This document shows positions 5,627-26,025 of a DNA stretch of 36,464 nucleotides, piece after piece. The notes below the pieces were generated by a model. It saw nothing but the letters and a program-made list of their open reading frames with translations, searched no databases and was not told the origin of the DNA. Each line of letters opens with the position of its first letter. The stretch's first letter is position 1. The DNA is from Armatimonadota bacterium. GTDB lineage: Bacteria; Armatimonadota; Armatimonadia; Armatimonadales; Armatimonadaceae. The translations under genes and the position numbers were made by a program. Location: assembly GCA_043754515.1 (NCBI GenBank), contig JAYUUO010000153.1, positions 1-36,464 on the forward strand, written 5' to 3'.

Positions 5627-5649
5627 CCGATCGCAGGCCCAGACAACTC

Positions 5650-5952: not shown

Positions 5953-6028
5953 CGGCGACGGCACGCTGTTTTGCCCCACGTTCCCTCTTGGTCCGGGGTG
6001 CTCCGATGAGCGGTGACGACACCACGAC

Positions 6029-6057: not shown

Positions 6058-6062
6058 GAAGC

Positions 6063-6150
6063 GGGCATAGATTTCGCCCCGCGCGGTGACCGCCGCCGAA
6101 CCGCCTCTCGCAACGACCCGACTCACCGCGCAACAGCTGATGATTTCTAC
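6063..6150 (+). ncRNA. Candidate fluoride (crcB-motif) riboswitch
   Basis: 5' hairpin GGGC-ATAGATTTC-GCCC, AACCGC (6099-6104) and GCTGATGATTTCTAC (6136-6150) resemble crcB-motif landmarks. It begins at the predicted TSS upstream of a CLC-F gene. P1 is atypical. Confidence 0.65.
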
Positions 6151-6264
6151 GGTAACTCGCCGCGATCGCGCGGCACACACGCCGTAGGTGTCGCGCGTTC
6201 CTCTACGGCATACGTCCGAGGTACGCGCGCAGGAAACCGCGCACGCCCGAAAGGAAATCCGCCC

Positions 6265-9453: not shown

Positions 9454-9647
9454 GCGGATATGCCGCTCGGGTCGGGCGGCACCGCATATTCTACCCCACG
9501 TGCTTTGCTTTGCAAAGTATTTGGCAACGGATTCCGGTTAAGAGTTCTCTTAAAGAGGCGGGCGATCAGCGAAAGCGATTCGGGTTGGTGTCCTCCTGTG
9601 GTATTCATAATAACTGCATCAAAGCGATAAAGCGTCGCGAGACGTGA

Positions 9648-10388
9648 CTATTTGGCGTTCCCTGTCATCAGCATCTCAACAATTAACAGCGCGGTAAAGC
9701 CGACAAAGAAAATGGCACTGAGCGCGGGGCTGTCGGGTTCCTCATGCGCTTCGACCAGTAGCTCCTCGGTCACAAGATAAAGAAGTGCCGCCGCGCCGAA
9801 CGTCAGCACCACATCGAGCCAGAAACCGGTCAGCCCGGGAAGGAGTCCCGCCCCGACACCCGCCCCGATCAGCAGTGCCAGCGCGAGGGCGGCGACGGTG
9901 AGCAGAGCGCGCCCGCGCGGCACGCCCGCTTTCGTCAGGGCAACGGCGGCGGACATCCCGAGGAACAGCACTTCGCCCGCGAGCGCGACCGTGAGCAGTA
10001 GCCCCTGCTTCGCTCCCGCCGCGAACCCGACCCCGATGAGCAGTCCGTCAATCGAGACGTCCACGCCGAGTGCGATCAGCAAGGTGTTCGGAGATTCCGA
10101 TTTACTTTCCTTTTCGTCCGGCTTGCTCTCCGCGAGCCGTTTAACACCGAACACGGTTCCTACGCCAAGTGCCATACCGAGCACGGTGGCGATAGGCGAA
10201 TGGTCGTGCAGAATCTCCGGGAGTAGTTCTACCGCGACGGCGGCGAACACGATGCCCGCCGCCAAATGTTGTGTCGCGCTTCGCACCTTCGCGCCGGGGG
10301 GACGCACAAGAGCGATTGCGCCACCGAGCAGAATAGCGGCGGTGGGTATCAGGGCGTAGAGCAAGACGTTCACGATGGGGCTTGTCAT
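9648..10388 (-). CDS. ZIP-family divalent metal transporter (ZupT-like)
   Basis: HLAAGIVFAAVAVELLPE, DVSIDGLLIGVGF, FGAAALLYLVTEELLVEAH. About 8 TM segments. Confidence 0.85.
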   Translation of the reverse strand: MTSPIVNVLLYALIPTAAILLGGAIALVRPPGAKVRSATQHLAAGIVFAAVAVELLPEILHDHSPIATVLGMALGVGTVFGVKRLAESKPDEKESKSESPNTLLIALGVDVSIDGLLIGVGFAAGAKQGLLLTVALAGEVLFLGMSAAVALTKAGVPRGRALLTVAALALALLIGAGVGAGLLPGLTGFWLDVVLTFGAAALLYLVTEELLVEAHEEPDSPALSAIFFVGFTALLIVEMLMTGNAK

Positions 10389-10618
10389 GAGCTGTCTTTC
10401 ATCAAGAGCGACTGACCGGCGCGTATACTTTCGGCAAGTTCCACCGGAATAACAAACACGCCACCGTCACCTGTATTACCCGTGTGAGCGCATTCTTTAA
10501 TTTTGGCGACGACCGCATCTACCATGGCGTCCGGTACCATGGTTCCGAGTTTTGCCTTGACGCTGATTGCTCGCGCCTCGGATACGGTGACACCGGGCAG
10601 ATTCTCTACACGAAAAAG
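10385..10618 (-). pseudogene. 5'-truncated P-II-family protein remnant
   Basis: Own translation: VENLPGVTVSEARAISVKAKLGTMVPDAMVDAVVAKIKECAHTGNTGDGGVFVIPVELAESIRAGQ, with the P-II TG..GDG..FV.PV....IR.G motif. In-frame TAA at 10621-10619 and no proper N-terminus. Its stop overlaps the ZIP start (ATGA). Confidence 0.75.
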
Positions 10619-10694
10619 TTATTTTCTTGAGGTAGGTTCTTCGCTGTCAAGAGGAGTTTCCTTCTTTAATCGGAGGGACGAAAGTTCCAACGGG

Positions 10695-11049: not shown

Positions 11050-11424
11050 CTATGTTTCGTTCAACTGGCCGGCGCCAAGGATGCAACACCCTTCAACCCG
11101 GAGTCGTAGCCGTTCACGCACCCCGTCCGCGTCTCGTCTCAAGCGTTTGTCACGAGAAAGCGCGGACTCATGAGCGCAAAAGATGGTGTCAAGAAGTGGC
11201 GCGGTGGTGGCTTCCAACCCGTAATAAATCCACTTACCGTCCTTGCGCGTGTTGACCAAACCCGCTTGCCGCACGGTTTGCAGGTGGGTGGATAATGTGG
11301 ACTGACTCATTTCCAGTGAGTCGCTGAGTTCACATACACACAGTTCGCTTTGGCGAAGGGCGGCGAGAATGCGGATTCGGGTGGGATCGGCAAGGGCTTT
11401 GCCCAAGAGGACTAAATCATTCAT
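11050..11424 (-). CDS. ArsR/SmtB-family metalloregulator
   Basis: KALADPTRIRIL..L...ELCVCEL...MSQSTLSTHL..VRQAGLV..RKDGKWIYY, plus a C-terminal CC. Confidence 0.93.
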   Translation of the reverse strand: MNDLVLLGKALADPTRIRILAALRQSELCVCELSDSLEMSQSTLSTHLQTVRQAGLVNTRKDGKWIYYGLEATTAPLLDTIFCAHESALSRDKRLRRDADGVRERLRLRVEGCCILGAGQLNET

Positions 11425-11434
11425 AACGTATCTT

Positions 11435-11482
11435 CATATCGGGAATTAACGATATGTTATAGGCAATGGAGACGGATGTCAA
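11435..11482 (-). promoter_or_regulatory. arsR promoter with overlapping palindromic operator
   Basis: TTGACA (11482-11477), 17 nt, TAACAT (11459-11454). Inverted repeat CATATCG-N8-CGATATG at 11435-11456. Confidence 0.75.
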
Positions 11483-11624: not shown

Positions 11625-14600
11625 TCAAACACTATGTGGCTGTCGCCCGTCCACTTCCTGCGACTCGTCCTTCATGAACGATGCGTACAGCATGGGCAAC
11701 ACCACGAGAGTCAGGATGGTAGACGACACGATACCGCCGATGACGACTGTGGCGAGGGGGCGCTGGACTTCCGCGCCGATTCCCGTGTTAAGGGCCATCG
11801 GCATAAAACCAATCGCGGCGACGAGCGCGGTCATCAGCACCGGGCGCAGACGGGCGTTCGCGCCTTCCCATACCGCGTCTTTCACTGTTCTGCCTTCCGC
11901 CCGGAGCGCGTTGATCGCCGAAACCATCACCACGCCGTTCAGCACCGCCACGCCGGACAGGGCGATAAAGCCGATGCCCGCCGAAATCGAGAGCGGCAAG
12001 CCCCGCGAGACCAGCCCGAACACGCCGCCCGTAACCGCGAGTGGAACCCCGGTAAAGATAAGTAGCGACTGTTTCAGGTCGCCGAACGACAGGAACAGGA
12101 GCGCGAAGATCAGCCCCAGCGCGAGCGGCACGACAAGTGCGAGCCGCGCCGCCGCCCTTTGCAGGTTCTCGAACTGCCCGCTCCACTCGACGTAATAGCC
12201 GGTCGGCAGTTTCACGTCGCGCTTGATTCTCGCCCGCGCCTCGTTCACGAACCCGCCGAGGTCGCGCCCGCGCACGTTCGCCAGCACCACCGCGAACCGC
12301 TTGCCCTGCTCGCGGGTCACTTGCGGCGGCGCGCCTGTCATCTGAATCGTCGCCACGCTGTCGAGGCGCACCGCGCCGCCGCCCGGCGTCGTGATTGGCA
12401 GGGCGCGGAGCGCGTTCACGTCGGTGCGGTCAGACTCCGGCAGGCGAACGGTCATATCGAACCGCTTGTCGCCCTCGATAATTTGACCCACGGAGCGGCC
12501 GGCAAGGGCGGTGGCGACCCATTCCTGCGCATCGCTGATGTTCACGCCGACACGGGCGAGAGTGTTTCTATCCATCGTGATCTGCAAAACAGGGATCGAA
12601 TCCAGCGCGGGCGACGTGACGTCGGCGGCCCCCGGAACCATTTTCAGCACGGCGGCGATACGTGCCGCCTGTTTATTCAGTTCGTCCAGGTCCTCGCCGA
12701 ACACTTTGATACCGATGTTCGCCTTCACGCCAGAGGTCAATTCGTCGAAACGCATCTGAATCGGCTGGGTGAAGCCGTACCCCTGCCCCGGCACGACTTT
12801 GAGTTTTTCCTCTATCTCTTCGATGAGCTTGACTTTGGTGACTCCTTTGCGCCACTGATTTCGCGGCTTGAGCATGACATATGTATCCGTGAGGCTCATC
12901 GGCATGGGGTCTGTGGCGACCTCGCCCGTGCCACTCCGCGAAAACACGGTGGTGACTTCGGGAATCGCTTTGAGAACCCGTTCCGCCTCTTCCACCAATT
13001 TGAGAGTCTCTTTTTCGCCCACCGTTCGCAGACGCACCGGCTGCACCAGTACATCGCCCTCGTCGAGTTGTGGAATAAACTCCGTGCCGAGCCGCGACGC
13101 CAGCACACCGGCGAGGACGAGGATGCCGACCGCGCCCGCCGCGACCGCGAAGCGCGAACGGAGCGACCACGAAAGCACCGGACGGTACACGGCGGAAAAG
13201 AACGCCATCACGGGATTCTTGCCCTCGCGCGTGTCGCCGGACAGGAACATCGCGCAGAGCGTCGGAATCAGAGTCATCGTCAGCATCAACGCGCCGACCA
13301 GCGCAAACACGACCGTCAGTGCCATCGGGCGGAACATCTTGCCTTCCGTGCCTTCCAGGGTCAGGATCGGCAGGTAGACCACGGTAATAATCGTGACCGC
13401 GAACGCGACCGGGGTTGCCACTTGCGCGGATGAGCGGTACACCTGCTCGCGCACTTCGGCACGGGTCAAAGTACGCCCGACCTTTTCGCGCCGGTGCGAG
13501 AGTTCCGCGACCGCGTGTTCCACCATCACCACCGCGCCGTCCACGATCAGGCCGAAGTCAATCGCGCCGAGGCTCATCAGGTTGCCCGACACGCCGAATC
13601 GGTTCATCAGGGTCACGGCGAATAGCATGGAGAGCGGGATGGCGAGCGCGACGATCACTGCCCCGCGCCAGTTGCCAAGAAGCGCGAGCAGGATAACGAC
13701 GACCAGTATGCCGCCTTCGAGCAGGCTCCACTCCACCGTCTCTACCGCGTGGCCGACCAACTCCGAGCGGTTGTAAACCGGGCTAAGTAACACATTCGGG
13801 GGCAGTTGCTCCTGAATCGCCTTCAGTCGCTCCTCGGCGGCGAGGGCGACCGTGCGGCCGTTCGCGCCTTTGAGCATCATCACGACCCCTAGAACGACTT
13901 CCCTGCCGTCCTTCGTGGCGACGCCGGTGCGGAGCGGCGTTCCGATCACGATGTCGGCGACGTCGCGCAGCAAGATCGGCGTACCGTGCTCGGCTTCCAC
14001 CACGATGTTTCCGATGTCGTCCGCGCCGGTCGCCATGCCGATACTCCGCACGATGGTCTGCTCGCCCTTTCGCTCGATAAAGCCGCCGCCCGCGTTCTGG
14101 TTGTTCTTCTGCGCGGCTTCGATGACCTGGGCGAGCGACACGCCCCGCGAGCGCATCCGCTGTGGGTCAATGCGGATTTCGTACTGCTTTTCGTAGCCGC
14201 CCTGACTGTTGACCTCGGCGACGCCGGGGACGGTGCGCAGTCGCGGGCGGATCGTCCAGTCCATCAGCGTCCGTAGTTCCATCGGGGTTTGTGTGTCGCT
14301 TTCGACAACGAACTGAAACACCTCGCCAAGCCCGGTGGAAACCGGCCCCATGGCGGGGGCGTTCACGGCAGGCGGCAGCTGCTCACGCACGGTCTGGAGC
14401 CGTTCATTAACGAGTTGGCGGGCGAAGTAGATGTCCACGTCCTCTTTGAAAGTCACTGTGACTTGCGACAAGCCGTACTGCGACAGGGAGCGCACCTGCG
14501 TCACGCCCGGAACGCCGCCGAGTGTGGTCTCAATCGGAAACGTGACCAACTTCTCGACTTCGGCAGGAGCCATCCCCGGCGTGCGCGTGTTGATTTGCAC

Positions 14601-14738
14601 CTGATTCGGGGTAATGTCCGGCACGGCATCGAGTGTCAGGCTGTTCCACGACACGACTCCGATACCGACGAGGAGCAAGGTAGCGACAACTACGAGGAAG
14701 CGTTGCGCGATACTCCACTGCAAAATGCGTTGTAACAT
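11625..14738 (-). CDS. czcA: CzcA/CusA-family heavy-metal efflux RND permease
   Basis: 1037 aa. DAVPDIT, NLMSLGAIDFGLIVDGAVVMVE (HME TM4 motif), EGKMFRPMA, RLRPVLMTA, GAEVQRPLATVVIGG. Confidence 0.95.
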   Translation of the reverse strand: MLQRILQWSIAQRFLVVVATLLLVGIGVVSWNSLTLDAVPDITPNQVQINTRTPGMAPAEVEKLVTFPIETTLGGVPGVTQVRSLSQYGLSQVTVTFKEDVDIYFARQLVNERLQTVREQLPPAVNAPAMGPVSTGLGEVFQFVVESDTQTPMELRTLMDWTIRPRLRTVPGVAEVNSQGGYEKQYEIRIDPQRMRSRGVSLAQVIEAAQKNNQNAGGGFIERKGEQTIVRSIGMATGADDIGNIVVEAEHGTPILLRDVADIVIGTPLRTGVATKDGREVVLGVVMMLKGANGRTVALAAEERLKAIQEQLPPNVLLSPVYNRSELVGHAVETVEWSLLEGGILVVVILLALLGNWRGAVIVALAIPLSMLFAVTLMNRFGVSGNLMSLGAIDFGLIVDGAVVMVEHAVAELSHRREKVGRTLTRAEVREQVYRSSAQVATPVAFAVTIITVVYLPILTLEGTEGKMFRPMALTVVFALVGALMLTMTLIPTLCAMFLSGDTREGKNPVMAFFSAVYRPVLSWSLRSRFAVAAGAVGILVLAGVLASRLGTEFIPQLDEGDVLVQPVRLRTVGEKETLKLVEEAERVLKAIPEVTTVFSRSGTGEVATDPMPMSLTDTYVMLKPRNQWRKGVTKVKLIEEIEEKLKVVPGQGYGFTQPIQMRFDELTSGVKANIGIKVFGEDLDELNKQAARIAAVLKMVPGAADVTSPALDSIPVLQITMDRNTLARVGVNISDAQEWVATALAGRSVGQIIEGDKRFDMTVRLPESDRTDVNALRALPITTPGGGAVRLDSVATIQMTGAPPQVTREQGKRFAVVLANVRGRDLGGFVNEARARIKRDVKLPTGYYVEWSGQFENLQRAAARLALVVPLALGLIFALLFLSFGDLKQSLLIFTGVPLAVTGGVFGLVSRGLPLSISAGIGFIALSGVAVLNGVVMVSAINALRAEGRTVKDAVWEGANARLRPVLMTALVAAIGFMPMALNTGIGAEVQRPLATVVIGGIVSSTILTLVVLPMLYASFMKDESQEVDGRQPHSV

Positions 14739-14741: not shown

Positions 14742-16391
14742 TTAATCGTCTCCCTTTAGTTTGTTTTTCTTGCTTTCGCTTTTGACCACGAACATCCCGT
14801 CCATGACAACCCGTTCACCCGCTTTCACGCCGGAAGCGATCTCGACCATGCCGCCGACCGTCTTCCCGGTTATGACTTTTCGCTTCTCGAAACCTCCCTC
14901 TACGGCGACATAGACGAACCGATCCTCGCCGTCTTCGTCCACCGCCGCGTCCGGCACGGCAATACTCGAACGTGTTGCCCCGGTTTCGAGCGACACGCGG
15001 GCGAACATCTCCGGCTTCAGTGCCCCCTGGGGATTACGAACGAGGCAACGCACCGGCAAAGCGCGGGTTTTCTCATCCACCGCGCTACCGACGCTTTGCA
15101 CGACGCCCGTGAACACGGTCCTGGGGTATGCCGCGACGGTCACTGTGACCGGGGCATTCGGGCGAACCTTCGCCGCGTCCGCTTCGGGGACGCTGGCGAC
15201 GACGGTCACTAGCGACAGGTTTTGCACCGTGAAGAGGACGCTCGCCCGTTCCACCGCCTGTCCGAGGGTGACGCGGCGTTCGGCGATAGTTCCTGCGATG
15301 GGGGCGTGCAGGGCGATGCGCCCCGCCCCACCCGACGCGTGACCGCTTCCTTCCAGGGCACGCAAATTGGCAAGGGCCGCGCGCTCCGTGACGATTGTCC
15401 CCGAGAGCGCGGTGCGGGCCGACTGCGCTTGCTTTTGTGACTGCCGTACCTCGCCTTGCGCGGCGGCGAGTTCCGCCGCCGCCCCTTGCACTGCCTGCCG
15501 GTTCAAAAGACCGCTGCCGTACACGCGCCGCTCACGGGCTAGCGCGGTTTGCGCGATGGCGACTTGTTGCTTTGCCCGTTCGCTTTGCGCCTCTGCCTGC
15601 GCGACGGCGGCCTGAGCCTGTTCGAGTTCGGCACGGGGCGCGATCTGGGCATCGAACAGCCTTTGGGCGCGGGTGGCAACGGAACGGGCGAGCGCGAGGG
15701 ACGTATCCGCCGCCTTCCGTGCTGCCTGGGCTTCGGACAAGGCGTTTTGAGCCGCTTGCAGGGACGGCTGGGCGAGTTGCCCGGAAGCGGCGAGTTCCTT
15801 CTGGCGCGACAGGGCCGACTGTGCGCTTGCGGCTTTCGTTCGCGTCTGCTCGACGCCCGCCTCGGCGGACTGTACCGCGGACCGCGCTTCGGCGATTTTT
15901 GCCTCCGCCTCCCGCACGGCGGCGTGTGCCTGCGCTACTTCGGGGCTATCGAGAAGCGCAAGCCGTTGCCCCGCTTTCACCGTATCGCCAGGCTGTGCAA
16001 ATAGTTCGATCAGGGTGCCAGAAACGGGCGGGGTCACGGTCGCGCCCCGGTCGGGCGCTACCGTGACGATGCCGGGGGCGGACAGTGTCTGCGCGAGGGG
16101 CAACAGTTTTACGGTAACTGTTTGAATCCCCGCGGTTTTCCCCGCATCGGGCGAGAGGGTAATCAGTCCACTCGTCGCGGCATCAGCGGGTTTTGTTCCC
16201 TCGGACTTCGCCTCCCGCGTGGCGGCGGGGGGAGGCGTGGGAGACGCCCCCCGCCCGACGAAATAGGCGATACCGGACGCGACCAACACGAGCGGCAGTA
16301 GGGCGACAACGGGAATCCCGCCGCGCCGTGGCGCGGGCGGTGTTATGGTCTGGGTCGTTTCGTTTTCTTTGGTTTCAACAGTCGTATACAT
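14742..16391 (-). CDS. czcB: RND periplasmic adaptor (CzcB-like) with long coiled-coil hairpin
   Basis: N-terminal TM, lipoyl halves (PVSG..PGDTVKAGQ; APIAGTI), DEKTRALPVR, LKPEMFARV. Lies between TolC and czcA. Confidence 0.9.
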   Translation of the reverse strand: MYTTVETKENETTQTITPPAPRRGGIPVVALLPLVLVASGIAYFVGRGASPTPPPAATREAKSEGTKPADAATSGLITLSPDAGKTAGIQTVTVKLLPLAQTLSAPGIVTVAPDRGATVTPPVSGTLIELFAQPGDTVKAGQRLALLDSPEVAQAHAAVREAEAKIAEARSAVQSAEAGVEQTRTKAASAQSALSRQKELAASGQLAQPSLQAAQNALSEAQAARKAADTSLALARSVATRAQRLFDAQIAPRAELEQAQAAVAQAEAQSERAKQQVAIAQTALARERRVYGSGLLNRQAVQGAAAELAAAQGEVRQSQKQAQSARTALSGTIVTERAALANLRALEGSGHASGGAGRIALHAPIAGTIAERRVTLGQAVERASVLFTVQNLSLVTVVASVPEADAAKVRPNAPVTVTVAAYPRTVFTGVVQSVGSAVDEKTRALPVRCLVRNPQGALKPEMFARVSLETGATRSSIAVPDAAVDEDGEDRFVYVAVEGGFEKRKVITGKTVGGMVEIASGVKAGERVVMDGMFVVKSESKKNKLKGDD

Positions 16392-16405: not shown

Positions 16406-17821
16406 CTACGGGGTCGGTAAAAAGGTCTCGGGAACCGCGCCAGAGGCACGTTCTAGCGCGGCGCGGGCGATGGCAAGGGTGGTGAGCGCGTCGGCATACT
16501 CGTTCTGGATGCCGATGTAGGAGCGTTGGGCTTCAAGGAGCGCGACCACGGACACGCGTCCCTCTCGGAAGCCGAGCTGACTGGCGTCAAGGAGTCGTTT
16601 CGCCTGCTCCAGGACGCCGCCGCGATAGCTCGTCCGCACCGTTTCGGCGCCGGCGAACCGCATTTGCGCCTGCGCGATCTCCTGCCGGATGTCGTTTTGC
16701 GCGGCGACAATGCGCGATTCCTGCGCCTTTGCGCCTTCTTCCGCCTGTCGAATCCGGTTTTTGCGGCTCCCGTGGTCGAAGAAAGGCAGGGTCAGGGCGA
16801 CGCCGATTCCCACGCCCTGTCCTTGACTCGCGGGTTGCAACCCGCGCAAGAAGTTGCCGACGCGCACTTGCGGGGCAATGTCAGGACGCCCTTCGGCACG
16901 GGCGAGCGCGGCTTCGGCGCGAAAACGGTCGCGCAGAGCGACGGCGGACCGGGTCTCCCCGCGGGCGGAGAATGCCCGTGTAGCGAGCGCATCGCCCGCA
17001 TCGGGAACAGTGGGCGGCGTACCGGGCGGCAGGATCATCGGCGCGTTGTCCTGTTGGCGGGAAGCCCCTTGCGGGTGAAAAACTCCTTGCGCGGCGGTCT
17101 CGCCCGACGTTTGCGGGGAAATGAGTCCCGTGCCACCCGCGCCCGATGCTTGCGGATCGGGGGCATCCAGACTGAGTAGCGGAATGCTTTGCGTTACCGA
17201 ACGGGCGAGGAGCGTGTTGAGAACGGCGACGGATTCGGCGGTAGCCCCGTCCGCTAGGGTGACTTCGCGCTGGGAACGCGCCACTTCGATACCGGTCTGC
17301 GCCAGATCAATCCCGGCGCGCGCGCCCGCCTCGACCTGTATCCGGGCGACCCGGTCCGCCTCCCGCGCCACCGCGAGTAGCTCGCGGGCTATCCCCGACC
17401 GTCGCTGTGCCCGCGCCACGGTGTAGTAGGCGACCTTGGTTTGGTAGACGATATCGCGCAGGGTGACGAGCGATCCGGCCCGCGCCCCGCGCAGGTCGGC
17501 GTTCGCGACGGCGGCTCGTGCCTGGCGAACCCCGTTGAGTTCGAGCGGTTGCTGGGCGAGAAACTCCTCGCCCGTGCCGCTAATGCTGGTGATGCCGGGG
17601 GCGAAAAACACGGTGGGATTGGTGAGTGCACGGACAGAGCGCACCCCGGCCGTTGCCGCCCGAACATCGCGGACGGCGGCGTCGAGGCGCGGGTTGCGGG
17701 ACACGGCGAGGCACACGGCGTCGTCTACCGAAAGCGGATCGGTTGCTTGTCCCCAGGCGGGCAAACTCGCTATAAGGGGAACCAGACCACCCAATACAAA
17801 AAGCGCGAAATGTCGCGGCAT
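16406..17821 (-). CDS. czcC: TolC-family outer-membrane efflux protein (CzcC-like)
   Basis: Signal peptide, LSVDDAV..AV.RNP.L, LTLPFFD, GFREGRVSVVALLEAQR. SD CAGGAG. Confidence 0.88.
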   Translation of the reverse strand: MPRHFALFVLGGLVPLIASLPAWGQATDPLSVDDAVCLAVSRNPRLDAAVRDVRAATAGVRSVRALTNPTVFFAPGITSISGTGEEFLAQQPLELNGVRQARAAVANADLRGARAGSLVTLRDIVYQTKVAYYTVARAQRRSGIARELLAVAREADRVARIQVEAGARAGIDLAQTGIEVARSQREVTLADGATAESVAVLNTLLARSVTQSIPLLSLDAPDPQASGAGGTGLISPQTSGETAAQGVFHPQGASRQQDNAPMILPPGTPPTVPDAGDALATRAFSARGETRSAVALRDRFRAEAALARAEGRPDIAPQVRVGNFLRGLQPASQGQGVGIGVALTLPFFDHGSRKNRIRQAEEGAKAQESRIVAAQNDIRQEIAQAQMRFAGAETVRTSYRGGVLEQAKRLLDASQLGFREGRVSVVALLEAQRSYIGIQNEYADALTTLAIARAALERASGAVPETFLPTP

Positions 17822-17946
17822 AAGAAGAACTCCTGACTGAAACGGCGGAGTGTCGTCCCCAAACGGGGGCGGGGAACCGGTGCGTCAGGAGGCGCGGCGC
17901 GGGAAACTAAAAGCGCGGCGACATCCCGACACATCCGGCTCGCGAA

Positions 17947-18435
17947 TTAAGCGAGTCGTGTCAGGAGATGAGGTGGGGCGCGGGGGGAGAGGGCTGACGG
18001 AAGATAAAGGGCGGGGGGAGGCCCACGATATCCGGGGGCATGGACGACAAGGTACTTCACCACGCGAACCGTATCAACTCGGGTCGGGGAGTCGAGGACC
18101 GCGAGCGGTGGGAATGCCATCGCCTTATTCGCTACACTAAGGCTGACGACCACGGACGACCCAGCCGTCTCAATCCCCATTTTGCAGTCGCACCCCGCCC
18201 CGCGCATCATGTCCGAACTCACCGGGGGCGTGGAACGCGCGGAGGGAAACACCACGGCGCATTGCGAGTCACAACGGGCGACGTTTTCGGCCTTGCAACA
18301 GCAACTTCCCATCACCAAGCCGCAGACGCGGCCTTCGCAGTACCAGGCGAACATGTTCCCCGCGATCATCCGCGGCAAGAGCAGCAAAATCGCCATAATC
18401 AGAGGATGGATATATAATCGCCGGGTGTTCAACAC
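17947..18435 (-). CDS. Cys-rich exported leader protein with RGPP/RAPP C-terminus (CzcI/DUF2946-like arrest-peptide candidate)
   Basis: Hydrophobic N-terminus, 9 Cys (CCC, CxxxC, CxC), C-terminus ...YRGPPPALYLPSALSPRAPPHLLTRLA. Directly upstream of czcC. Confidence 0.72.
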   Translation of the reverse strand: MLNTRRLYIHPLIMAILLLLPRMIAGNMFAWYCEGRVCGLVMGSCCCKAENVARCDSQCAVVFPSARSTPPVSSDMMRGAGCDCKMGIETAGSSVVVSLSVANKAMAFPPLAVLDSPTRVDTVRVVKYLVVHAPGYRGPPPALYLPSALSPRAPPHLLTRLA

Positions 18436-18439
18436 GCCG

Positions 18440-18448
18440 AGTATACCA
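18440..18448 (-). promoter_or_regulatory. Extended -10 element (TGgTATACT) for a probably leaderless leader-ORF transcript
   Basis: TATACT at 18445-18440, 4 nt before GTG 18435 and 7 nt before TTG 18432. No SD visible. Confidence 0.55.
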
Positions 18449-18477
18449 TGAGCCCGTGGTCCATTCGTAATACCGTA

Positions 18478-21400
18478 CTAGCGACTGAGCGCACGTTCGT
18501 ACCTCTCGCCGGTCGCGGCCCGCAGCTGCGCGCGGGCGATCACCCGCTCCGCCTGAGCGCGGGCGAGCGCGGTGATCGCACGGGTGTAGGCCGCTAGCGC
18601 GTCGAGCCGTTCCGCCGTGACCGACTTGCCCGCGTCGTAGCGGAGGCTTGCGAGTTCATACGCCTGCTTCGCGGCGGCAACACCAACCTGCGCGACGCCA
18701 ATCCGCGCGTTCGCGGAGGCGTTCGCGAGCCACGCGGACGCCGCCTCCCGCGCGACACTTTGCCGCGCCCGATCCCCGTCGGCGGTGGCGCGGTCCAGCC
18801 TTGCCCGCGCCGCTTCGTTATCCGCACGCCGCTGCCCCCCGTCGAGGAGCGGCAGACTTGCGGTCAGGGCGAGGGTGTAGCCCGCGCGGCTTCCGCCGTC
18901 CCGACTTGCGGTGCCGTCCGCCATCGCCACGCCGTACACCTGCGGCGCATAGGCTCCTCTGGCGGCGGCGACCCCGGCCCGCGCGGCCGACACCTGACGC
19001 AGAGCGGTGACCAGTTCCGGACGGTTCGCCGCCGCCCGTTCCACCGCCGCTTCTTGGGTGGCGGGGATGCTACCGCCGTCCGCTATCGCTATCAGAGCGT
19101 CCAGCGTGTCGCCCGGCACGAAGGGCGATGACTGCGGAACGCCCATCGCCGCTTTGAGTTCGACCAGTGCGACCGCCGCGGCGTTCCGCGCCTCCAACAC
19201 CGCCTGTTCCGCCTCCGCCTGTTCCGCCTCCTCGCGCGACAGATCCACCGGCGCGAGCCGTCCCGCCGCGACGCGTAGCCGGGTGACGCGCACCTGTTCG
19301 TCCTCGGCGCGGAGCCGCGCCTCCGCCGCATTAATCAGTTCCCGCCCTAGCACCGCGCGGGTGTATGTTTCGGTGACGGACTCTTCGGCAAGTAGTCGCG
19401 CCGCCGTGACCGCCGCGCCCATCGCCTCGCTCTGCCGGTTCGCGCTCCCGAGATTCGCTTCGAGCCGCCCGCCCGTCGTCAGAGGCACCATCAGCATCAG
19501 GTTCTGATCCGCGAATGGGCGCGGCGAGACGGCGAAAACGTTCTGCGGCATGACGCCCGGCGCGGACGTCAAAATGTTGGACGAGTCACCTGTCGCCAGG
19601 TACGTCGTGGTCGAAAGGGTCGGGCGGCGGGCCGCTACCGCCGAACCGACGCCCGCGTTCGCCGCGCGGTAGTCGGCTTCCGCCGCGCGGATAGCAGGGC
19701 TGTCGTGTAGCGCGAGCCGCACCGCGTCCGTCAGCGACAATGTTTGTGTCACGGGCGGGGCGGGATCGGGCGGGCCTGCGGGCGACGCGGCGGAAACGCC
19801 CGCCGCGCGTGCCGAACCGATTGGCCCCGCGACGAACGCGGCGAGCAGAAGGCAAATGACTACGGCGGCTTCCGACCCCCGACCGGATGAGCCGTGCGCA
19901 TCGTTTTCGCCGGGTGCGTTCTTGCCCCGCGCCCGCCTGAACAGGTTATTCAGGTCGTCAACTAGGGCGTGCATGACGGGAATCACCAGGAGTGAGAGTA
20001 GCGTGCCAATGGTCAGCCCCGCGACGATCACCGTGCCGAGCGGCTGGTACGCGTCAATGCCCATACGCGGCGCGAGCGCAACGGGGAGCATGGTCACGAT
20101 GGTGATCAGCGAGGTCATTACGATGGGCCGGAGGCGGTCGCGACAGGCCAGCGCGATTGCCTCGTCGCGCGGCAACTGCCCTTCCGCCCGCCGCCGCTGT
20201 ATCTGATCAATTAGCAGAATAGCGGTGGTGATGTCCATCCCGGTCAGCACGATCACCGCCATGATGGACACAGTCGAGAATGCCTGATGCGCGAGCCACA
20301 GCCCTAAAAAAACGCCCGACAGTTCGAGCGGGATTGAGAGCACCATCTGGAGCGGCGCGAGTAGCCCCCCGAACTGCGCGATCAACACCAAGAAGATCAG
20401 CAACACGGCTAGTTCCAGCCCGCGCAAGAGGCGGGCGAAGCTGTCCATCATCTGCGTCATGTCACCGCGCATCTCCAGAGAATAGCCGGGCGGGAAGTTG
20501 ATCTCCGCCGACGCTCTCGTGATGATGGACATAGCGAGGTCCATTGAGGGCGGACCATCTTTCCGATAGTATGCCAGCACCGAGATAGTTCTGCGCAACC
20601 CGTCGTGCTCGATAATGGTCGGTGCTAGCTCGGGCGTCGCCGTCGCCAGCGTCTTGAGCGGGATCTGTTCACCGCTCGGGGCGGTGATTGGCATCTGGAG
20701 CAGATCGTAAATGCTCTGCCGTTGCCCTTCCTGATACCGGATGTTGATAGTGTCCTGCCGGATGTTCGGGAGCCGATAAAACTCGCTGGCGAGCGCGCCG
20801 CCCATGGCGTAGTAGGCTTGATCGGCGATTTCGGACGGCGTGAGGCCGACCTCGGCGGCGCGGCGGCTGTCTACATCAAGGCGGTACGACGGCTTCTCGG
20901 TCGCCCAGGAGGTCGAGACCTGTAGTGCGCCGGGCGTTTTTCGCGCGACATCCGCGACCTGCGCGGCGAGTTTCGACAGGATATTCAGATCCTTCCCCGT
21001 GACCAGGATCGTGACGGGTGCCTCGGACGACGCCATGACGTCCGACCCCATCTCCTTGATCTGGAGGCGGCGGATGTTCGGGATCGAGCGCATTGCCTCG
21101 TCCTGAACCGCGTCAATTACTTGCCACACGGTCTGCTTCCGCTCGTCCTTGTCCGACAACGTGATCATCAGGGTGGCCGTATTTACCTCGCCCATCGCGT
21201 AGCCGGTGAAGTACGTCCCGCCCGGTTCCTCGCCGATTTCGGTAGAAACGCGGCGAATTTCGGGGTGCTTCAGGATGATCCGCTCCAGTGCCGTGGTCGC
21301 AGCCTTCGTTTCGGCATAGCTCGCGCCGGGGCGCATCTCCAGCACACCGTACGCCTGCCCGACGTCGGCGAGTGGCATCATCTCCGAGCCGATGAACCGG

Positions 21401-23139
21401 TAGAAACCAAGCCCGGCGATCACCGTGGCGAGAGCGACGGCGACGACCGAGAAACGATTACGGAGGAGCACCAGCACCAGCCGCTGATACCAGGCGTCAG
21501 CCCGATCCAGGCGCGACTGGAGCGGCGCGAGCACTCCCCGCGCGAACCAGGAGCGGCGTGTCTCATCGCCCGCCGTATGCGGCTTGAGCAGGTACGCCGA
21601 AAGGAGCGCGGTCAGTGTCAGCGAAACGAAAAACGAGGCGATCAGCCCGAAAATGATCGGATAGACCAACCCGACGAACATGATCTGCGTAATGCCGCCG
21701 CAGAACAGGAGCGGCGACAGCGCGAGTACCAGCATGATCGTGGACGCGGCGACGGCGAGCCGCACTTCGGTGATTCCGTCCACGGTCGCGGTCTTCGGGT
21801 CCTTGCCCATCGCCAGGTGCCGCTCGACGGCGTGGATGTCAATCAGGGAATCGTCCACGAGCCGCCCGATGGAGACGAGAAGCCCGATCAGCGTGGACGA
21901 GTTCAGCGAGAACCCGAACGGCACCATGAGCAGAATCGCCATCGCCATGGATACCGGGATCGTCACCAGCGAGATCAGCGTGCCGCGCCCGCTCCCGAGG
22001 AAGAAGAGCACGGCGATCCCGCAGAGTGCGACCGCCGTTAGTAGCTCCTCGCCGGTGTTTTTGAACAGGATGTTGACGAATCGCGCGTTGTCATAGGCGA
22101 CTTTGAAGTGTAATCCGGGATGATCCTCCTCCAGCGTCGCGATCTGCTTTCGGACTGACGCGATCACGGGCACGGAACCGACGGCGGGGTTCTGGATCAC
22201 TGCCATCTCGACGGCACCGTTATCCGCGCCCTCGATTTGTTTGCGCGCCCCGTCCACGAAGTGGTAACCGCTCCGCTGTTCGCGGAAGTCATCGGAAACG
22301 CTGGCCACATCCTTGATCGAAATGATAGCCCCGTTCTTCGCGCCGAGCGGATAGTTCGCGACCGACTGCGCATCCTGGGCAAGCCCCGAAACGCGCACGA
22401 TAGTCTCGTTCAATCCGCTCGTGATCACGCCGGCTGGTTTCGCCGCGCTGTGTTTGTCCACCGCGTCGCGGACGTCCAGTATCGAGTAGCCGTAGGCGGC
22501 CAATTTGTCGCGATTCACCGTGACGCGCAGCTGCCGCTTCCGCCCACCGTAGACCGAAACGGACTGAACGTCTCCGATCTGTTTAAGGGCGCGGACGCCC
22601 TCGTTCTCGGCGAACTCGCGGAGCGAAAGCGGCGTCCACCCTTTATCCGCGTCACCCGTCACCGACAGCGAAAGTACCGGCAGGTTCAGCGGGTCAATCG
22701 GTAGCACCCAGGACGGCTTCCCGTTCGCGCCGGTCGGTGGCAGGTCGGCCTGCACCGCACTCATCAGCGATTGGACGTCCGTGGTCGCCTTCTTCATATC
22801 CGTGCCGTAAGGAAACTCCAGCGACACTATAGACAGACCGTCCTGCGAGGTGGAGCGGATGTACCGCGCCCCGCGAATGTCTGTCATCCGCTCCTCGATA
22901 GGCTTGGAAAGGTACGTCTCCATCTCCTGAGCGGATAGTCCGGGCATCATGGTTACGATGCCGACCAGAGGCGACTCGACGTAAGGCATCATGCGTCGCG
23001 GCATGATCCCGCCGAATACCGTGATCGCCGCCAGCACGATCACGGCGACATAGAACGAGATGACGACCCACGGGTGCTGTATGCTCCACGCCGAGACGTT
23101 GAACCCGCCGGACGCGGTTTCACTTTTAAGTTTAGACAT
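18478..23139 (-). CDS. RND permease fused to a C-terminal TolC/OEP domain (1553 aa)
   Basis: First ~1070 aa are AcrB-like (PGLSAQEMETYLSKPIEE, GRLVDDS, RLRPIVMTSL). Then a hydrophobic segment ending ARA, then OEP repeats (LSLTDAVRLAL, SLPLLDGG, LRYDAGK). Confidence 0.9.
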   Translation of the reverse strand: MSKLKSETASGGFNVSAWSIQHPWVVISFYVAVIVLAAITVFGGIMPRRMMPYVESPLVGIVTMMPGLSAQEMETYLSKPIEERMTDIRGARYIRSTSQDGLSIVSLEFPYGTDMKKATTDVQSLMSAVQADLPPTGANGKPSWVLPIDPLNLPVLSLSVTGDADKGWTPLSLREFAENEGVRALKQIGDVQSVSVYGGRKRQLRVTVNRDKLAAYGYSILDVRDAVDKHSAAKPAGVITSGLNETIVRVSGLAQDAQSVANYPLGAKNGAIISIKDVASVSDDFREQRSGYHFVDGARKQIEGADNGAVEMAVIQNPAVGSVPVIASVRKQIATLEEDHPGLHFKVAYDNARFVNILFKNTGEELLTAVALCGIAVLFFLGSGRGTLISLVTIPVSMAMAILLMVPFGFSLNSSTLIGLLVSIGRLVDDSLIDIHAVERHLAMGKDPKTATVDGITEVRLAVAASTIMLVLALSPLLFCGGITQIMFVGLVYPIIFGLIASFFVSLTLTALLSAYLLKPHTAGDETRRSWFARGVLAPLQSRLDRADAWYQRLVLVLLRNRFSVVAVALATVIAGLGFYRFIGSEMMPLADVGQAYGVLEMRPGASYAETKAATTALERIILKHPEIRRVSTEIGEEPGGTYFTGYAMGEVNTATLMITLSDKDERKQTVWQVIDAVQDEAMRSIPNIRRLQIKEMGSDVMASSEAPVTILVTGKDLNILSKLAAQVADVARKTPGALQVSTSWATEKPSYRLDVDSRRAAEVGLTPSEIADQAYYAMGGALASEFYRLPNIRQDTINIRYQEGQRQSIYDLLQMPITAPSGEQIPLKTLATATPELAPTIIEHDGLRRTISVLAYYRKDGPPSMDLAMSIITRASAEINFPPGYSLEMRGDMTQMMDSFARLLRGLELAVLLIFLVLIAQFGGLLAPLQMVLSIPLELSGVFLGLWLAHQAFSTVSIMAVIVLTGMDITTAILLIDQIQRRRAEGQLPRDEAIALACRDRLRPIVMTSLITIVTMLPVALAPRMGIDAYQPLGTVIVAGLTIGTLLSLLVIPVMHALVDDLNNLFRRARGKNAPGENDAHGSSGRGSEAAVVICLLLAAFVAGPIGSARAAGVSAASPAGPPDPAPPVTQTLSLTDAVRLALHDSPAIRAAEADYRAANAGVGSAVAARRPTLSTTTYLATGDSSNILTSAPGVMPQNVFAVSPRPFADQNLMLMVPLTTGGRLEANLGSANRQSEAMGAAVTAARLLAEESVTETYTRAVLGRELINAAEARLRAEDEQVRVTRLRVAAGRLAPVDLSREEAEQAEAEQAVLEARNAAAVALVELKAAMGVPQSSPFVPGDTLDALIAIADGGSIPATQEAAVERAAANRPELVTALRQVSAARAGVAAARGAYAPQVYGVAMADGTASRDGGSRAGYTLALTASLPLLDGGQRRADNEAARARLDRATADGDRARQSVAREAASAWLANASANARIGVAQVGVAAAKQAYELASLRYDAGKSVTAERLDALAAYTRAITALARAQAERVIARAQLRAATGERYERALSR

Positions 23140-23144
23140 CGCGG

Positions 23145-25022
23145 CTACCGTCCTTCCTGAACCGGCGTGAGTTTTCCGCCGTCCATGGGATCAATGAAGT
23201 GGTGCTTCCGCGCGTCCGCTTCGGAGTAGATCATGTTACAGGTCGCGCAACGGTAGCGGGTGATGCCGCGAGCGGTACCGCCCGCCGCAGTCGGGAGCGT
23301 CTCCGGCCCGCTATCGCCCCAGCGCGTTAGGGCGACCCGTCCTCCTTCGGTTAGCCCCGCCTGGCCGCGTATCACTATCCGGTCGCCCGCGCCGAGCGCG
23401 AGCGTGGATATCACGGACGCGGAGCCATCGCTCGCGCCGAGGGTGACCGCGACGCGCCGTATGGTCAGACCGCTATCGCCGACAGATGCTGTGCCCTCTC
23501 CATCGGATGCCGCGCCCGCCCGCGCGACGGGCGCGAGTTTTCCGCCGTCCATGGGGTCAATGAAGTGGTGCTTCCGCGCGTCCGCCGCCGAATAAATCAT
23601 GTGGCAGACGGCGCATTCGTACCGCGTCGCGTCCGTCCCGGTGCTCTTGCCTGTGACGGACGGACGGACCGACCCGCTCGCGACCCACACGAAGGCGTTC
23701 CCGCCGTCATAAACCACCGCCGCCGTCGGGACGAGCAGCGCGTCGCGCGAGCCTGGTTTCGTCAGATGTACGGTGACGAACGCGCCGGGGAGCAGAGCGT
23801 GACGCGGGTTGTCCAGTACTGTCTCGACCACCGCCGTGCGGCTCGTTTCGTTCGCAGCGGGAAAGACGGATGTGACTGTGCCGACAATTGACTTCGCCGC
23901 GCCGTTCACGCCCGCCTGGGGGACGATTCGCACGGGTGTCCCCGGACGGATGCCGCTCAGGTCGCTGACGGCCACCCGCGCCTGAACCCGAACCCGGTCA
24001 ATTTCGGCGATTTTCAGGAGCACCGTCCCCGGCTGAACCAGCGTGCCGGGCGCGACGGCCCGCTCCGTAACCACGCCAACCGTCGGCGAAACGATACGCG
24101 CGTAGCCCTCGCTGATCGCCGCCTGCCGCGCCGCCGCGCGTGACGCGGTCGCAGTGAATCGCGCCTGCTCCGCCTGCTTTCCGGCGAGCGCGAGATCCGT
24201 CGCTGCCATCCGCCGCGCGGCGCGCGCGGACGCGATCTGCTCCCGCGCCTGGCTCAGTTTCGCGGTCGCCGCGCCGACCATTGCCCCCGCCTGTCGCTCT
24301 TTGGCGAGTGCCGAGGCGAGTGTCGCGTCGGCGACGCGTGCCTGCGCGACCTCGTTCTGGTACTCCTGGCGGGAGGCCGCGCCCGCGTCCGCGAGGCTTT
24401 TCTCGCGGGCCAACTCGACCTTCCAGTAGTCGGCGTTCGCCCGCGCCCCCTGTATAGCGGCGCGGGCGTCACCCGCCCCCGCCTCCGCGGCTTCCACCCC
24501 GGCCAGCGCGTCGCGAACGCCCGCGTCCGCCGCGGCGACCTGCGCGACCGCCTGCGCGAGAACGGCGGGGTGGTGCTCGCGGTCCGTCTGCTCCGCTATC
24601 CGGCGCGTGGCGTCGGTCGCGCCCGCCTCCGCGTTCATCTGCTCCGTTTTAGCCTGGATCTCGGCGGTGTCGAGTTGCGCGAGGAGTTGCCCCGCGCGTA
24701 CCGTATCGCCAGGATACACCGGGAGCGCGAGGATCTGCCCCGTAATCCGCGAGGAGATGTCGCGCGTGTTGTACGCCTGAACCGTGCCGGTGTAAGTCAC
24801 CGTATCGCCCAGTCCGCCGCGCCGAACGGACGCAAGCTCCACCGGCGCATCGCCGACCGGAGGGCGCATCTGTGACATATCCATCGCCTGCGCGGTGATC
24901 ACGTCGAGCTGTCCGGGGCGGTGCCACCGGCGCACGGCTCCGGCGGTCAGCACCGTGACCCCCGTGATCAGGGCGATGCCGATTCCGTATCGCGTGAACC
25001 AGTTCGTTTTTCGAGCGTTCAT
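23145..25022 (-). CDS. RND periplasmic adaptor with two CxxC..HHFIDPMDGGKL domains
   Basis: TM anchor, ISSRITGQI..VYPGDTVRAGQ, SPTVGVVTER, LLPGAFVTV. ATG 25022 preferred because the 25244 start overlaps the upstream gene. Confidence 0.88.
   Translation of the reverse strand: MNARKTNWFTRYGIGIALITGVTVLTAGAVRRWHRPGQLDVITAQAMDMSQMRPPVGDAPVELASVRRGGLGDTVTYTGTVQAYNTRDISSRITGQILALPVYPGDTVRAGQLLAQLDTAEIQAKTEQMNAEAGATDATRRIAEQTDREHHPAVLAQAVAQVAAADAGVRDALAGVEAAEAGAGDARAAIQGARANADYWKVELAREKSLADAGAASRQEYQNEVAQARVADATLASALAKERQAGAMVGAATAKLSQAREQIASARAARRMAATDLALAGKQAEQARFTATASRAAARQAAISEGYARIVSPTVGVVTERAVAPGTLVQPGTVLLKIAEIDRVRVQARVAVSDLSGIRPGTPVRIVPQAGVNGAAKSIVGTVTSVFPAANETSRTAVVETVLDNPRHALLPGAFVTVHLTKPGSRDALLVPTAAVVYDGGNAFVWVASGSVRPSVTGKSTGTDATRYECAVCHMIYSAADARKHHFIDPMDGGKLAPVARAGAASDGEGTASVGDSGLTIRRVAVTLGASDGSASVISTLALGAGDRIVIRGQAGLTEGGRVALTRWGDSGPETLPTAAGGTARGITRYRCATCNMIYSEADARKHHFIDPMDGGKLTPVQEGR
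23169..23585. repeat. Internal ~51-bp near-identical duplication encoding the repeated domain
   Basis: gagttttccgccgtccatgggRtcaatgaagtggtgcttccgcgcgtccgc at 23169-23219 and 23535-23585. A diverged third copy starts at 25163. Confidence 0.85.
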
Positions 25023-25099
25023 GGAAAACTTTCTAAAGGGGGAAGAGGGTAGTGTCCCGACCAGTGAATGATCTTCGGACCGGGGGCATCCCATTTCGG

Positions 25100-25378
25100 C
25101 TATGGCTTCGCGGGCGAGTGGTTCGGCTTCTTCGGGGCGACTACAATGCCCCTGACCGGGGTGAGTTTTCCGCCATCCACGGGATCGGGGAAGTGGTTCT
25201 TCCGTGCGACCGCCGCGACATAGCGCATGTGGCACTTCCGGCACTCGTCGAGCGTGGGGGCGGGCTTCGCCGCTTTTCTCGTCGGCCCCGCTAGGCTAGG
25301 CGCGACGGCACACGCGCCAACCAGAAGTAGGGCGAATCCCGGCGCGAGGGCGGGGGACAAACAAATTTTCTTAAACAT
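25100..25378 (-). CDS. Small exported protein with one CxxCH..HF.DPVDGGKL domain (candidate periplasmic metallochaperone)
   Basis: Signal peptide ending SLA, then DECRKCHMRYVAAVARKNHFPDPVDGGKLTPV. SD AGGAG 7 nt before ATG 25378. Confidence 0.78.
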   Translation of the reverse strand: MFKKICLSPALAPGFALLLVGACAVAPSLAGPTRKAAKPAPTLDECRKCHMRYVAAVARKNHFPDPVDGGKLTPVRGIVVAPKKPNHSPAKP

Positions 25379-25503
25379 GGCCATTCTCCTAAAGGGTCGC
25401 CTGAACGCGCGGATTAATATTCCGGCGCGAGGAGGTAAGTAGTACAGAGGTGATCCGACAACACGAAGGCGTGGCGACGGTCGCCGGGATCGGTTGGGTT
25501 ACA

Positions 25504-25974
25504 TCAGGAGAAAGCAGGGGGTGCGCGTGGAGAGATCAGGTAACGGGGCGGCCCGCGCGGGGAGGTTCCCCGAGTAGAAGAGCAAGCGACTGCTACTGAG
25601 ACAGTAGGAATCGTGATGGCGTGGGCGGGCGGGGCGGGCGGGAGCGCGGCGAACAGGTCGCCCGAGTTGCAGATGAGCGCGGCTGGCAAGGAACCGCCGT
25701 GACGAATCGGCTTGAGGTGGCAACAGGAGCGGTTCGTCAGCGCGACGCGCGATACCGGTCTGCTCCTTAGTTCGGATGGCTCGGGGCAACACGCCATATG
25801 GGGGGGAGCGGCGTGAACTCCGGTCGCTATCCCTGCGACGGTTCGAGCGGCGGACATAGGTAGCCTGGTCACGCGGCAGACGAGTTGGAACGTCGTGGTC
25901 GGGATCGCGCAAGCCGCGAAAACGACACACAACGCCAGTACATATGCCACGACCGTTCTTCTCATCCGTATCAT
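25504..25974 (-). CDS. Second Cys-rich exported leader protein with RGPP/RAPP C-terminus
   Basis: MRR plus hydrophobic N-terminus, 9 Cys including two CC pairs, C-terminus SPRGPPRYLISPRAPPAFS. Extended -10 TGaTATACT at 25994-25986. Confidence 0.75.
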   Translation of the reverse strand: MIRMRRTVVAYVLALCVVFAACAIPTTTFQLVCRVTRLPMSAARTVAGIATGVHAAPPHMACCPEPSELRSRPVSRVALTNRSCCHLKPIRHGGSLPAALICNSGDLFAALPPAPPAHAITIPTVSVAVACSSTRGTSPRGPPRYLISPRAPPAFS

Positions 25975-26025
25975 TTGACGAGTTCAGTATATCACCCGCA
26001 CCCGGTTGGCACTATACATCCAGAT

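Follow-up and report, generated by a model that had tools for sequence, protein, structure and literature searches.

The closest described relatives of the system considered here are small leader peptides that arrest their own translation. In Rhodobacter capsulatus, a stall in CutF melts a hairpin over a Shine-Dalgarno (SD) sequence and switches on CutO (PMC9973294; 10.1101/2025.02.05.636593), and RAPP peptides (ApdA, ApdP, and CruR) are described as stalling with the first proline of the motif (Pro3) in the P site. A 2025 survey of upstream open reading frames (uORFs) with such motifs reported arrest and a toeprint for CruR and a strong avoidance of RAPP and RGPP in proteomes (PMC12992588); RGPP has been described as the most robust arrest core. 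With respect to export, about 50 residues in extended form are reported to bridge the peptidyl-transferase centre and the periplasm, and a chain that folds or forms disulfides in the periplasm is reported to pull on arrest peptides; the literature base for arrest and translocation also takes in 10.1101/2023.09.02.556018, 10.1101/2021.02.06.430026, and PMC7513700. Leaders with RAPP or RGPP occur widely, and the survey leaves open how one arrest chemistry gives a metal-off response in CruR and a metal-on response in CutF. In this study, we analyzed a stretch of 36,464 nucleotides from an Armatimonadota bacterium (GenBank assembly GCA_043754515.1, contig JAYUUO010000153.1, positions 1 to 36,464; hereafter the window), in which two Cys-rich leader open reading frames (ORFs), leader A and leader B, carry two arrest-type motifs each and precede efflux genes of the resistance-nodulation-division (RND) type. 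We propose that both leaders are translated, exported arrest peptides that would act as a CutF-like translational on-switch for the genes behind them.

Two Leaders with Doubled Arrest-Type Motifs

Both leaders lie on the reverse strand, and the ORFs and the common design given for them in a first-pass annotation of the window were confirmed. Leader B (25974-25504) encodes 156 aa, and leader A (18435-17947, with a GTG start) encodes 162 aa. Each has a hydrophobic, export-type N-terminus, nine cysteines, and a low-complexity spacer rich in Pro, Ala, and Val, followed by RGPP and then RAPP close to the stop. The cysteine core is C..CC..CC in leader B and WxCxGxxC..CCC..C..CxC in leader A, and the tails are RGPP-x6-RAPP-AFS-stop and RGPP-x11-RAPP, with three and seven residues left between the second motif and the stop, respectively. 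The codons of motif 1 (RGPP) and motif 2 (RAPP) occupy 25546..25557 and 25516..25527 in leader B, and 18016..18027 and 17971..17982 in leader A, so that the distance from Arg to Arg is 10 codons in leader B and 15 in leader A; the last Cys of leader A precedes its motif 1 by 53 residues. When the genome was translated in six frames and every stop-to-stop segment of 60 aa or more was scanned (n = 47,277), R[AG]PP was found within the last 16 residues of 64 segments, and a doubled tail (a pair of R[AG]PP motifs among the 40 C-terminal residues) in only two, leaders A and B; chance ORFs were rejected as the source of the leaders on this count.

An AlphaFold2 model built with 110 sequences (pLDDT 69, pTM 0.40) placed the N-terminal hydrophobic helix of leader A at residues 9-24 and showed little structure beyond this signal helix and a small sheet; an AxA-like site in the homologues was judged by eye. 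A Foldseek search with the model gave no match at E<=0.001. In the ESM Atlas, the nearest leader clusters were Bacteroidota secreted proteins without a name, and leader B gave a weak lead to one DUF2946 cluster (23% of its members). Pfam and NCBIfam yielded no family for the leaders, the 110 family A members searched having no named family at E<=1.

Conservation of Motifs and Cysteine Spacing

A profile search of 401 genomes of the phylum found homologues of leader A (family A) in 36 genomes and of leader B (family B) in 18, three of them weak. The two families can be aligned only across 22 columns of the tail, which bears out the earlier remark that the leaders share little sequence. Among 1.84 billion representatives, the family A search returned 189 proteins at E<=0.001; among the 150 listed, the motif is doubled in 118, single in 23, and missing from nine, which mostly end early, such that at least one R[AG]PP motif is present in 141. 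Because the family A profile includes the motifs, the proteins were rescored on the Cys domain alone, and the motif remained doubled in 92 of the 115 that pass E<0.001. The spacing is 15 codons in 106 of the 118 doubled family A representatives, and 10-11 codons at the 18 doubled family B loci in the genomes (10 in 16 of them). Motif conservation in homologues, a point raised in the first-pass annotation, was found in both families.

The distance from the last Cys to the motifs is also fixed. In the family A representatives, the median is 50 residues (48-53) to motif 1 and 65 to motif 2; at the genome loci, the corresponding values are 51.5 and 66 for family A, and 54 and 64 for family B. Across the families, motif 1 is found 48-58 residues, and motif 2 about 64-66 residues, after the last Cys. 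In family A, this distance is conserved while the sequence of the spacer is not, and many leader homologues are 136-150 aa long. In both families, the two motifs are invariant at the protein level while their synonymous codons vary freely, and an RNA-level origin of the R[AG]PP motifs was rejected because of this variation.

The genome set comprised 63 leader segments, reduced to 59 by removal of the two frameshifted pieces of L058, of L054 (internal TAG), and of L036 (contig end); 49 of the leaders are doubled (31 family A, 18 family B). L058 (G270:C52) is a family A leader in two frames near a short-repeat run, probably owing to a frameshift or an assembly error. In L054 (G098:C109:9846-10277, -), also of family A, an in-frame TAG stands about 20 codons before RGPP while PPP, RGPP, the sequence complementary to the downstream SD (anti-SD), and that SD are intact, which leaves a broken gene, an assembly error, or amber read-through. 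In four genomes, including that of the window, a family B leader lies upstream of a family A leader on the same contig and strand; in two relatives, a Cys-rich ArsR-like regulator lies between the two modules (L002:1885-2197, L015:4947-5774).

Named records with family A leaders are titled Armatimonadetes, Armatimonadota, Armatimonas, and Chthonomonadales (L085, L088, L091, L117, L167). Conservation along the family A alignment is nowhere high enough to back-translate a stretch for a locus search. A DNA pattern scan of named genomes at fixed spacing gave, among the 120 matches listed, six real-looking leaders, five from family A of Armatimonadota and one from Novosphingobium. The latter (L189, Novosphingobium chloroacetimidivorans) is a Cys-free exported leader that ends RGPP-x11-RGPP-x2-stop, with a CCTGA complementary to the downstream TTCAGGA; the doubled design with 15-codon spacing is thereby present outside Armatimonadota.

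A Predicted RNA Switch over the Downstream SD

A sequence directly behind motif 2 (typically CTCCTGA) is the complement of the SD of the next gene (TCAGGAG). In leader B, the anti-SD TTCTCCTGA (25504..25512, -) comprises the final codons and the stop, and pairs with 25392-25384 in both the minimum free energy (MFE) and centroid folds, that is, with the SD region TTAGGAGAA (25384..25392, -) of the first gene behind the leader. In leader A, the anti-SD TCTCCTGAC (17960..17968, -) pairs, again in the MFE and centroid folds, with 17837-17830, the SD GTCAGGAG (17830..17837, -) of the czcC-like gene; a second SD-complementary stretch, CCTCCTGAC (17884..17892, -), lies in the intergenic hairpin and forms a separate stem in the fold. 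The leader A region is more stable than its shuffles (z -3.89). In most homologues, the anti-SD letters are read as Ser/Ala-stop, whereas in leader A of the window a different frame turns them into H-L-L-T; this change of frame points to selection on the RNA at the anti-SD. A search of both intergenic regions against Rfam returned neither a riboswitch nor another known RNA.

An anti-SD/SD duplex of -12 kcal/mol or lower was predicted for 42 of the 49 doubled leaders, compared with 7 of 63 ordinary gene pairs of the genome. Mean duplex energies were lower with the leader's own partner than with foreign partners (-17.8 vs. -13.3 in family A, -14.3 vs. -11.9 in family B), and in both families none of 10,000 partner permutations was as low as the own pairing, with the proviso that kin are not independent. 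In addition, anti-SD and SD covary, with compensatory pairs such as TAA/TTA and TTTCC/GGAAA. To model a stalled ribosome, the covered mRNA was removed from the fold, with eight downstream starts set by hand. Over the 49 doubled leaders, the median energy for opening the SD was 12.2 kcal/mol without a ribosome, 12.2 with a ribosome at motif 1, and 7.4 at motif 2, where the drop exceeded 2 kcal/mol in 41 leaders. In the window, the modelled SD of leader B required 9.5 kcal/mol without a ribosome, 10.3 at motif 1 (shut), and 5.9 at motif 2, and that of leader A 11.1 at motif 1 (shut) and 7.4 at motif 2. When the boundary was scanned, the opening energy stepped between +3 and +15 of the motif 2 P-site codon and was flat before. 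The footprint of a ribosome reaches about +15 from the P site.

A Two-Stall Model and Its Alternatives

From the invariant motifs, the cysteine spacing, and the position of the anti-SD under the motif 2 footprint, we infer that these conserved, exported, Cys-rich, arrest-type leaders control the downstream genes, and to this extent the regulatory role supposed in the first-pass annotation stands. In the model that we favor, at a probability of roughly 0.7, a stall at motif 2 would turn the downstream genes on, motif 1 would act as a checkpoint in the off state, and metal would shift occupancy to motif 2. In the free mRNA, according to the folds and the covariation, the bases after motif 2 would pair with the next SD and keep it shut. 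A ribosome stalled at motif 2, with Pro3 in the P site, would in the modelled fold cover the anti-SD and free the SD, and motif 1, 10 or 15 codons earlier, would provide a second stall during which the hairpin stays closed. The ribosome would reach motif 1 with the last Cys about 50-55 residues from the peptidyl-transferase centre; because this distance matches the published estimate of the length at which a chain just clears SecYEG, motif 1 is most likely an off-position checkpoint while the Cys domain samples the periplasm, and it may work either by timing or as a gate that opens under force. Metal on the Cys domain would then shift ribosome occupancy to motif 2 and turn on efflux or metal-binding genes. 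The metal is probably Zn, Cd, or Co for family A, given its CzcA-type pump, and a thiophilic metal such as Cu or Cd for family B.

Several observations weigh against this model. RAPP by itself is reported to be insufficient for arrest and to need upstream context (PMC12992588), and the main folding force on LepB is described at about 70 residues, nearer to motif 2 than to motif 1. Of the 141 family A homologues that retain motif 2, 23 lack motif 1 or carry it in degenerate form; 10 of the 23 have a near-variant and nine have PPP, eight of these in one weakly supported clade. Nine or more cysteines could equally be a reporter of disulfide formation, and the leader B pump does not score as a heavy-metal RND pump. 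At the RNA level, the whole-fragment fold of leader B is no more stable than its shuffles (z -0.58), the SD opening drop is below 2 kcal/mol in 8 of the 49 doubled leaders, and, because all SDs are alike, only 7 of 31 family A and 1 of 18 family B leaders pair best with their own SD. Finally, arrest, expression, and metal binding at these loci are predictions from sequence.

The first alternative is a form of the two-stall model that inverts the sign at motif 1. Without metal, a ribosome at the strong motif 1 would block traffic and keep the pump off, and a metal-folded Cys domain would pull it free, as has been proposed for CruR; the freed ribosome would land on motif 2, where slack in the chain means no force, and the pump would be on. 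Such an inverter is possible but doubtful. The strongest core, RGPP, stands first in 113 of the 118 doubled representatives, and motif 1 lies at a CruR-like distance from the cysteines (50 vs. 45 intervening residues); CutF, however, is reported to reach a metal-on response with a single stall, and folding force may peak nearer 70 residues, as in LepB. The CxxC leaders of the phylum have a single motif, at Cys+44-47, in 13 of 13 cases, and among the 11 with a neighbor in view, six head exbB and three head proteins with a carboxypeptidase-regulatory-like domain, which are probably TonB-dependent receptors; however, single-motif leaders head genes for outer-membrane efflux proteins (OEP) too, namely one CxxC leader (L222) and five family A loci. 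Among the 85 doubled leaders in the rows listed in the source data of PMC12992588, tails with RGPP then RAPP at least 10 apart were present in 6 of the 9 efflux-linked leaders, compared with 4 of the 76 others, a tally made by eye in which kin are not independent; doubled motifs are nevertheless common before importers and secD in these data. If the inverter were true, the importer-off force-release chemistry of CruR would turn exporters on. The fuller reading, in which a serial inverter is joined to a Zn/Cd/Co (not Cu) nascent-chain sensor in family A and to convergence of two unrelated families, is likewise tentative.

The second alternative, which overlaps the preferred model and which we consider rather unlikely, takes motif 1 as a tunnel contact or backup that strengthens the arrest at motif 2, or as an anti-collision spacer; the dependence of RAPP arrest on upstream residues (PMC12992588) would suit such a role. 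In family A, motif 2 is invariant and motif 1 has decayed repeatedly, with about eight changes for the 10 degenerate cases on a quick, weakly supported tree (4 of 137 branches starred). Moreover, the 10-codon spacing in family B is about one ribosome footprint. The residues at the motif 1 site, however, are not variable but an intact R[AG]PP (PPP in one clade), and the spacing differs between the families (10 vs. 15), unlike that of a fixed tunnel contact.

We consider it improbable that the leaders sense redox state or Sec capacity, with disulfide formation or export capacity releasing the stall and metals acting indirectly. Every downstream product is exported, disulfide-driven periplasmic folding is reported to pull on arrest peptides, and the published CutF model invokes disulfides in the metal-free state; yet the genes downstream are those for CzcCBA-like pumps and for secreted metallothionein-like and YtkA-like proteins rather than sec or dsb genes. 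Very improbable is that these are ordinary secreted metal-binding accessory proteins, coupled only by ribosomes that pass and terminate over the hairpin, since, although the anti-SD overlaps the stop in most homologues and any terminating ribosome would melt the hairpin briefly, the proteome-avoided RGPP and RAPP are both fixed, the spacing between Cys domain and motif is kept although the spacer itself varies in sequence, and little structure is predicted beyond the signal helix and a small sheet.

Returning to the two-stall model, families A and B constitute a natural test of the question raised by the survey, with two stall sites at fixed Cys distances and only one of them overlapping the anti-SD; for this reason, single Arg-to-Ala changes would separate the models. 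The answer would reach beyond the phylum, as at least about 2% of the RAPP uORF rows listed in PMC12992588 have doubled motifs.

Genes behind the Leaders

In the window, the gap from the leader end to the next start is 125 nt at both loci (starts 25378 and 17821), as first described, although leader B heads a small exported protein before its RND genes. This 92-aa protein (25100..25378, -; an alternative ATG at 25384 overlaps the SD) has no Pfam family above cut-off and contains one CxxCxMxY..HFxDPxDGGxLxP repeat. It is followed by an RND periplasmic adaptor of 625 aa from its likely start (23145..25022, -; HlyD_D23, TIGR01730) with two copies of the same repeat, and by a 1553-aa fusion of an RND permease with an outer-membrane efflux domain (18478..23139, -; ACR_tran and OEP). 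The repeat itself (CxxCxMxY-x8-HFxDPxDGGxLxP) matched no Pfam family above cut-off, and its Cys, His, and Met content makes it a putative metal-binding domain. Behind leader A lie a CzcC-like outer-membrane efflux protein (16406..17821, -; OEP), a CzcB-like periplasmic adaptor (14742..16391, -; HlyD_D23, TIGR01730), and a CusA/CzcA-family heavy-metal RND pump (11625..14738, -; TIGR00914). A metal substrate is supported for the leader A pump, which scores 1319 bits against a TIGR00914 cut-off of 701 and has ZneA as its nearest solved chain; the leader B pump scores only 345 bits and is nearest to MdtB, and a metal substrate for it is only inferred.

Across the families, the gene next to the doubled family A leaders (n = 31) encodes an OEP in 27 cases and an adaptor in two, with the other two cut by the contig end, and among 40 family A downstream genes, 26 start with TTG. 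Conversely, the regions upstream of the 20 best czcA homologues contain a doubled family A leader in 14 cases, are cut by the contig end in three, and have none in three. The expected position before RND genes was thus recovered in 29 of 31 family A loci, whereas family B mostly heads other genes: among its 18 doubled loci, the next product is YtkA-like in six (one fused to an adaptor), a short secreted Cys-rich protein in 10 (by eye), and another exported protein in two, one of them that of the window. The Cys-rich secreted proteins behind family B leaders look metallothionein-like; CC-repeat proteins among them (L002:1473-1745, L065, L068-L073, L075, L076) have the look of a periplasmic metallothionein, and no Pfam family was found for them. 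A third leader of the genome (L062:1102-1455; G000:C167:4601-4954, +) is His-rich, with CxxC and a single RGPP at Cys+47; it heads exbB-exbD-tonB and has a weak DUF2946 score (12.4 bits, cut-off 23.7), and its homologues head exbB in five other genomes.

The leaders had also been credited with their own promoters. Extended -10-like boxes do precede both starts, as matches to the consensus only: TGATATACT (25986..25994, -) lies 11 nt before the leader B start, which implies a leaderless transcript or a very short 5' untranslated region, and TGGTATACT (18440..18448, -) lies 4 nt before the GTG at 18435 and 7 nt before an in-frame TTG at 18432, making a leaderless start likely for leader A. At least 26 of the 49 doubled leaders have such a box 3-15 nt ahead of an in-frame start, a lower bound because the automated count misses boxes visible by eye, that of leader B in the window included, compared with 202 of 1957 long ORFs of the genome. 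This frequency suggests leaderless or near-leaderless transcripts for the doubled leaders.

Behind czcA come an ArsR-family gene, a ZIP transporter, and a pilin-like/ferric-reductase pair (11050-11482 and 9488-10650); each is preceded by a sigma-70-like site with the canonical TTGACA, in contrast to the extended -10 boxes in front of the leaders. The window also holds a gene for a CLC channel (6013-7569). At 4319-5901, a tyrosine integrase adjoins a tRNA (5830-5901, -), and remnants resembling insertion sequences occur at ~1970-2770, which suggests the border of an integrated element to the left of the metal cluster.

Comparison with Known Systems

The class to which these leaders would belong, and its efflux targets, are already known (PMC9973294; source data of PMC12992588), so control of efflux pumps rather than importers, presented at first as the novelty, was rejected as such. 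In the survey, RAPP uORFs are enriched over AAPP uORFs before genes for RND adaptors (620 vs. 148), TolC (530 vs. 380), and CusA/CzcA (50 vs. 7). We found nothing in the text of the survey on doubled motifs or on how they are placed relative to an anti-SD, its main text is without the words "tandem", "efflux", and "Armatimonad", and the literature searched yielded no paper on doubled RAPP/RGPP motifs, although supplementary files could hold a mention. However, its RAPP uORF list includes at least 188 RGPP matches among about 8,400 rows listed, giving at least about 2% doubled. Among 86 of these RGPP rows, most are doubled and stand before genes for TonB-dependent receptors, secD, PepSY, DUF1775, YcnI, or PCu(A)C, and nine precede efflux genes; the leader in row 8240 belongs to family A and precedes a TolC gene. 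In the same list, many Streptomyces leaders upstream of secD end RAPP-x9-RGPP, and the tails of DUF2946 leaders from acetic acid bacteria read RAPP-x9/10-RGPP and have their second motif at about CxxC+47 (both by eye). Doubling as a feature specific to the lineage or to efflux was rejected, with doubled rows present before importers and secD. We came across no description of either sensor family, of the fixed two-stall architecture, or of where its stalls lie with respect to the anti-SD.

CzcI of Cupriavidus metallidurans resembles the leaders as a small exported gene directly upstream of czcCBA with a suggested role as a metal-sensing regulator, but it is without a C-terminal proline motif (PMC9973294). 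The kinship with DUF2946 and CzcI that had been put forward for checking did not materialize: PF11162 (DUF2946) had no match at E<=1 in 110 family A and three family B members, and no CzcI match appeared in Pfam or NCBIfam for the same 110 at that threshold, the presence of a CzcI model in either library being unconfirmed. CruR of Bordetella pertussis (Bp2923, DUF2946/PF11162) shares a RAPP at a conserved distance from a Cys site and a long intergenic region; unlike the present leaders, it has one motif, controls an importer, needs no export signal, and is turned off by copper through Rho-dependent termination (PMC9426467). In place of its single CxxC about 45 residues before RAPP, family A has CxGxxC..CCC..C..CxC and family B has C..CC..CC. 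The small secreted uORFs with C-terminal RAPP or RGPP of Fujiwara et al. 2025 (PMC12992588) and ApdA/ApdP (PMC10951233) are similar, and the leaders of the window, as small, predicted exported uORFs with a conserved C-terminal R[AG]PP, fit the description of RAPP/RGPP arrest peptides; the text of the survey, however, treats single motifs.

The closest likeness is to CutF and CutF-like leaders, which combine an exported Cys leader, a C-terminal Pro-rich stall, and an SD within a stem-loop (PMC9973294; 10.1101/2022.11.11.516240; 10.1101/2025.02.05.636593), and which switch on detoxification genes, with OEP/CusC/CzcC as their commonest neighbors (PMC9973294). Both leaders have PP within the last 15 residues, a same-strand gene within 1,000 nt, and, in silico, a stem-loop shielding the downstream SD. 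At 156 and 162 aa they exceed the limit of <150 aa used for CutF-like leaders, which, as many homologues are 136-150 aa long, is a filter artefact and not a biological difference. CutF itself, as described, has one CxxxC and one EF-P-sensitive PPP stall, whereas the leaders studied here have 8-15 cysteines, in two domains unrelated to each other, and two R[AG]PP motifs, carry the anti-SD in their last codons, and, in family A, head a CzcA/ZneA-type pump. If the proposed model is true, family A would extend nascent-chain sensing to a CzcA-type divalent-metal pump.

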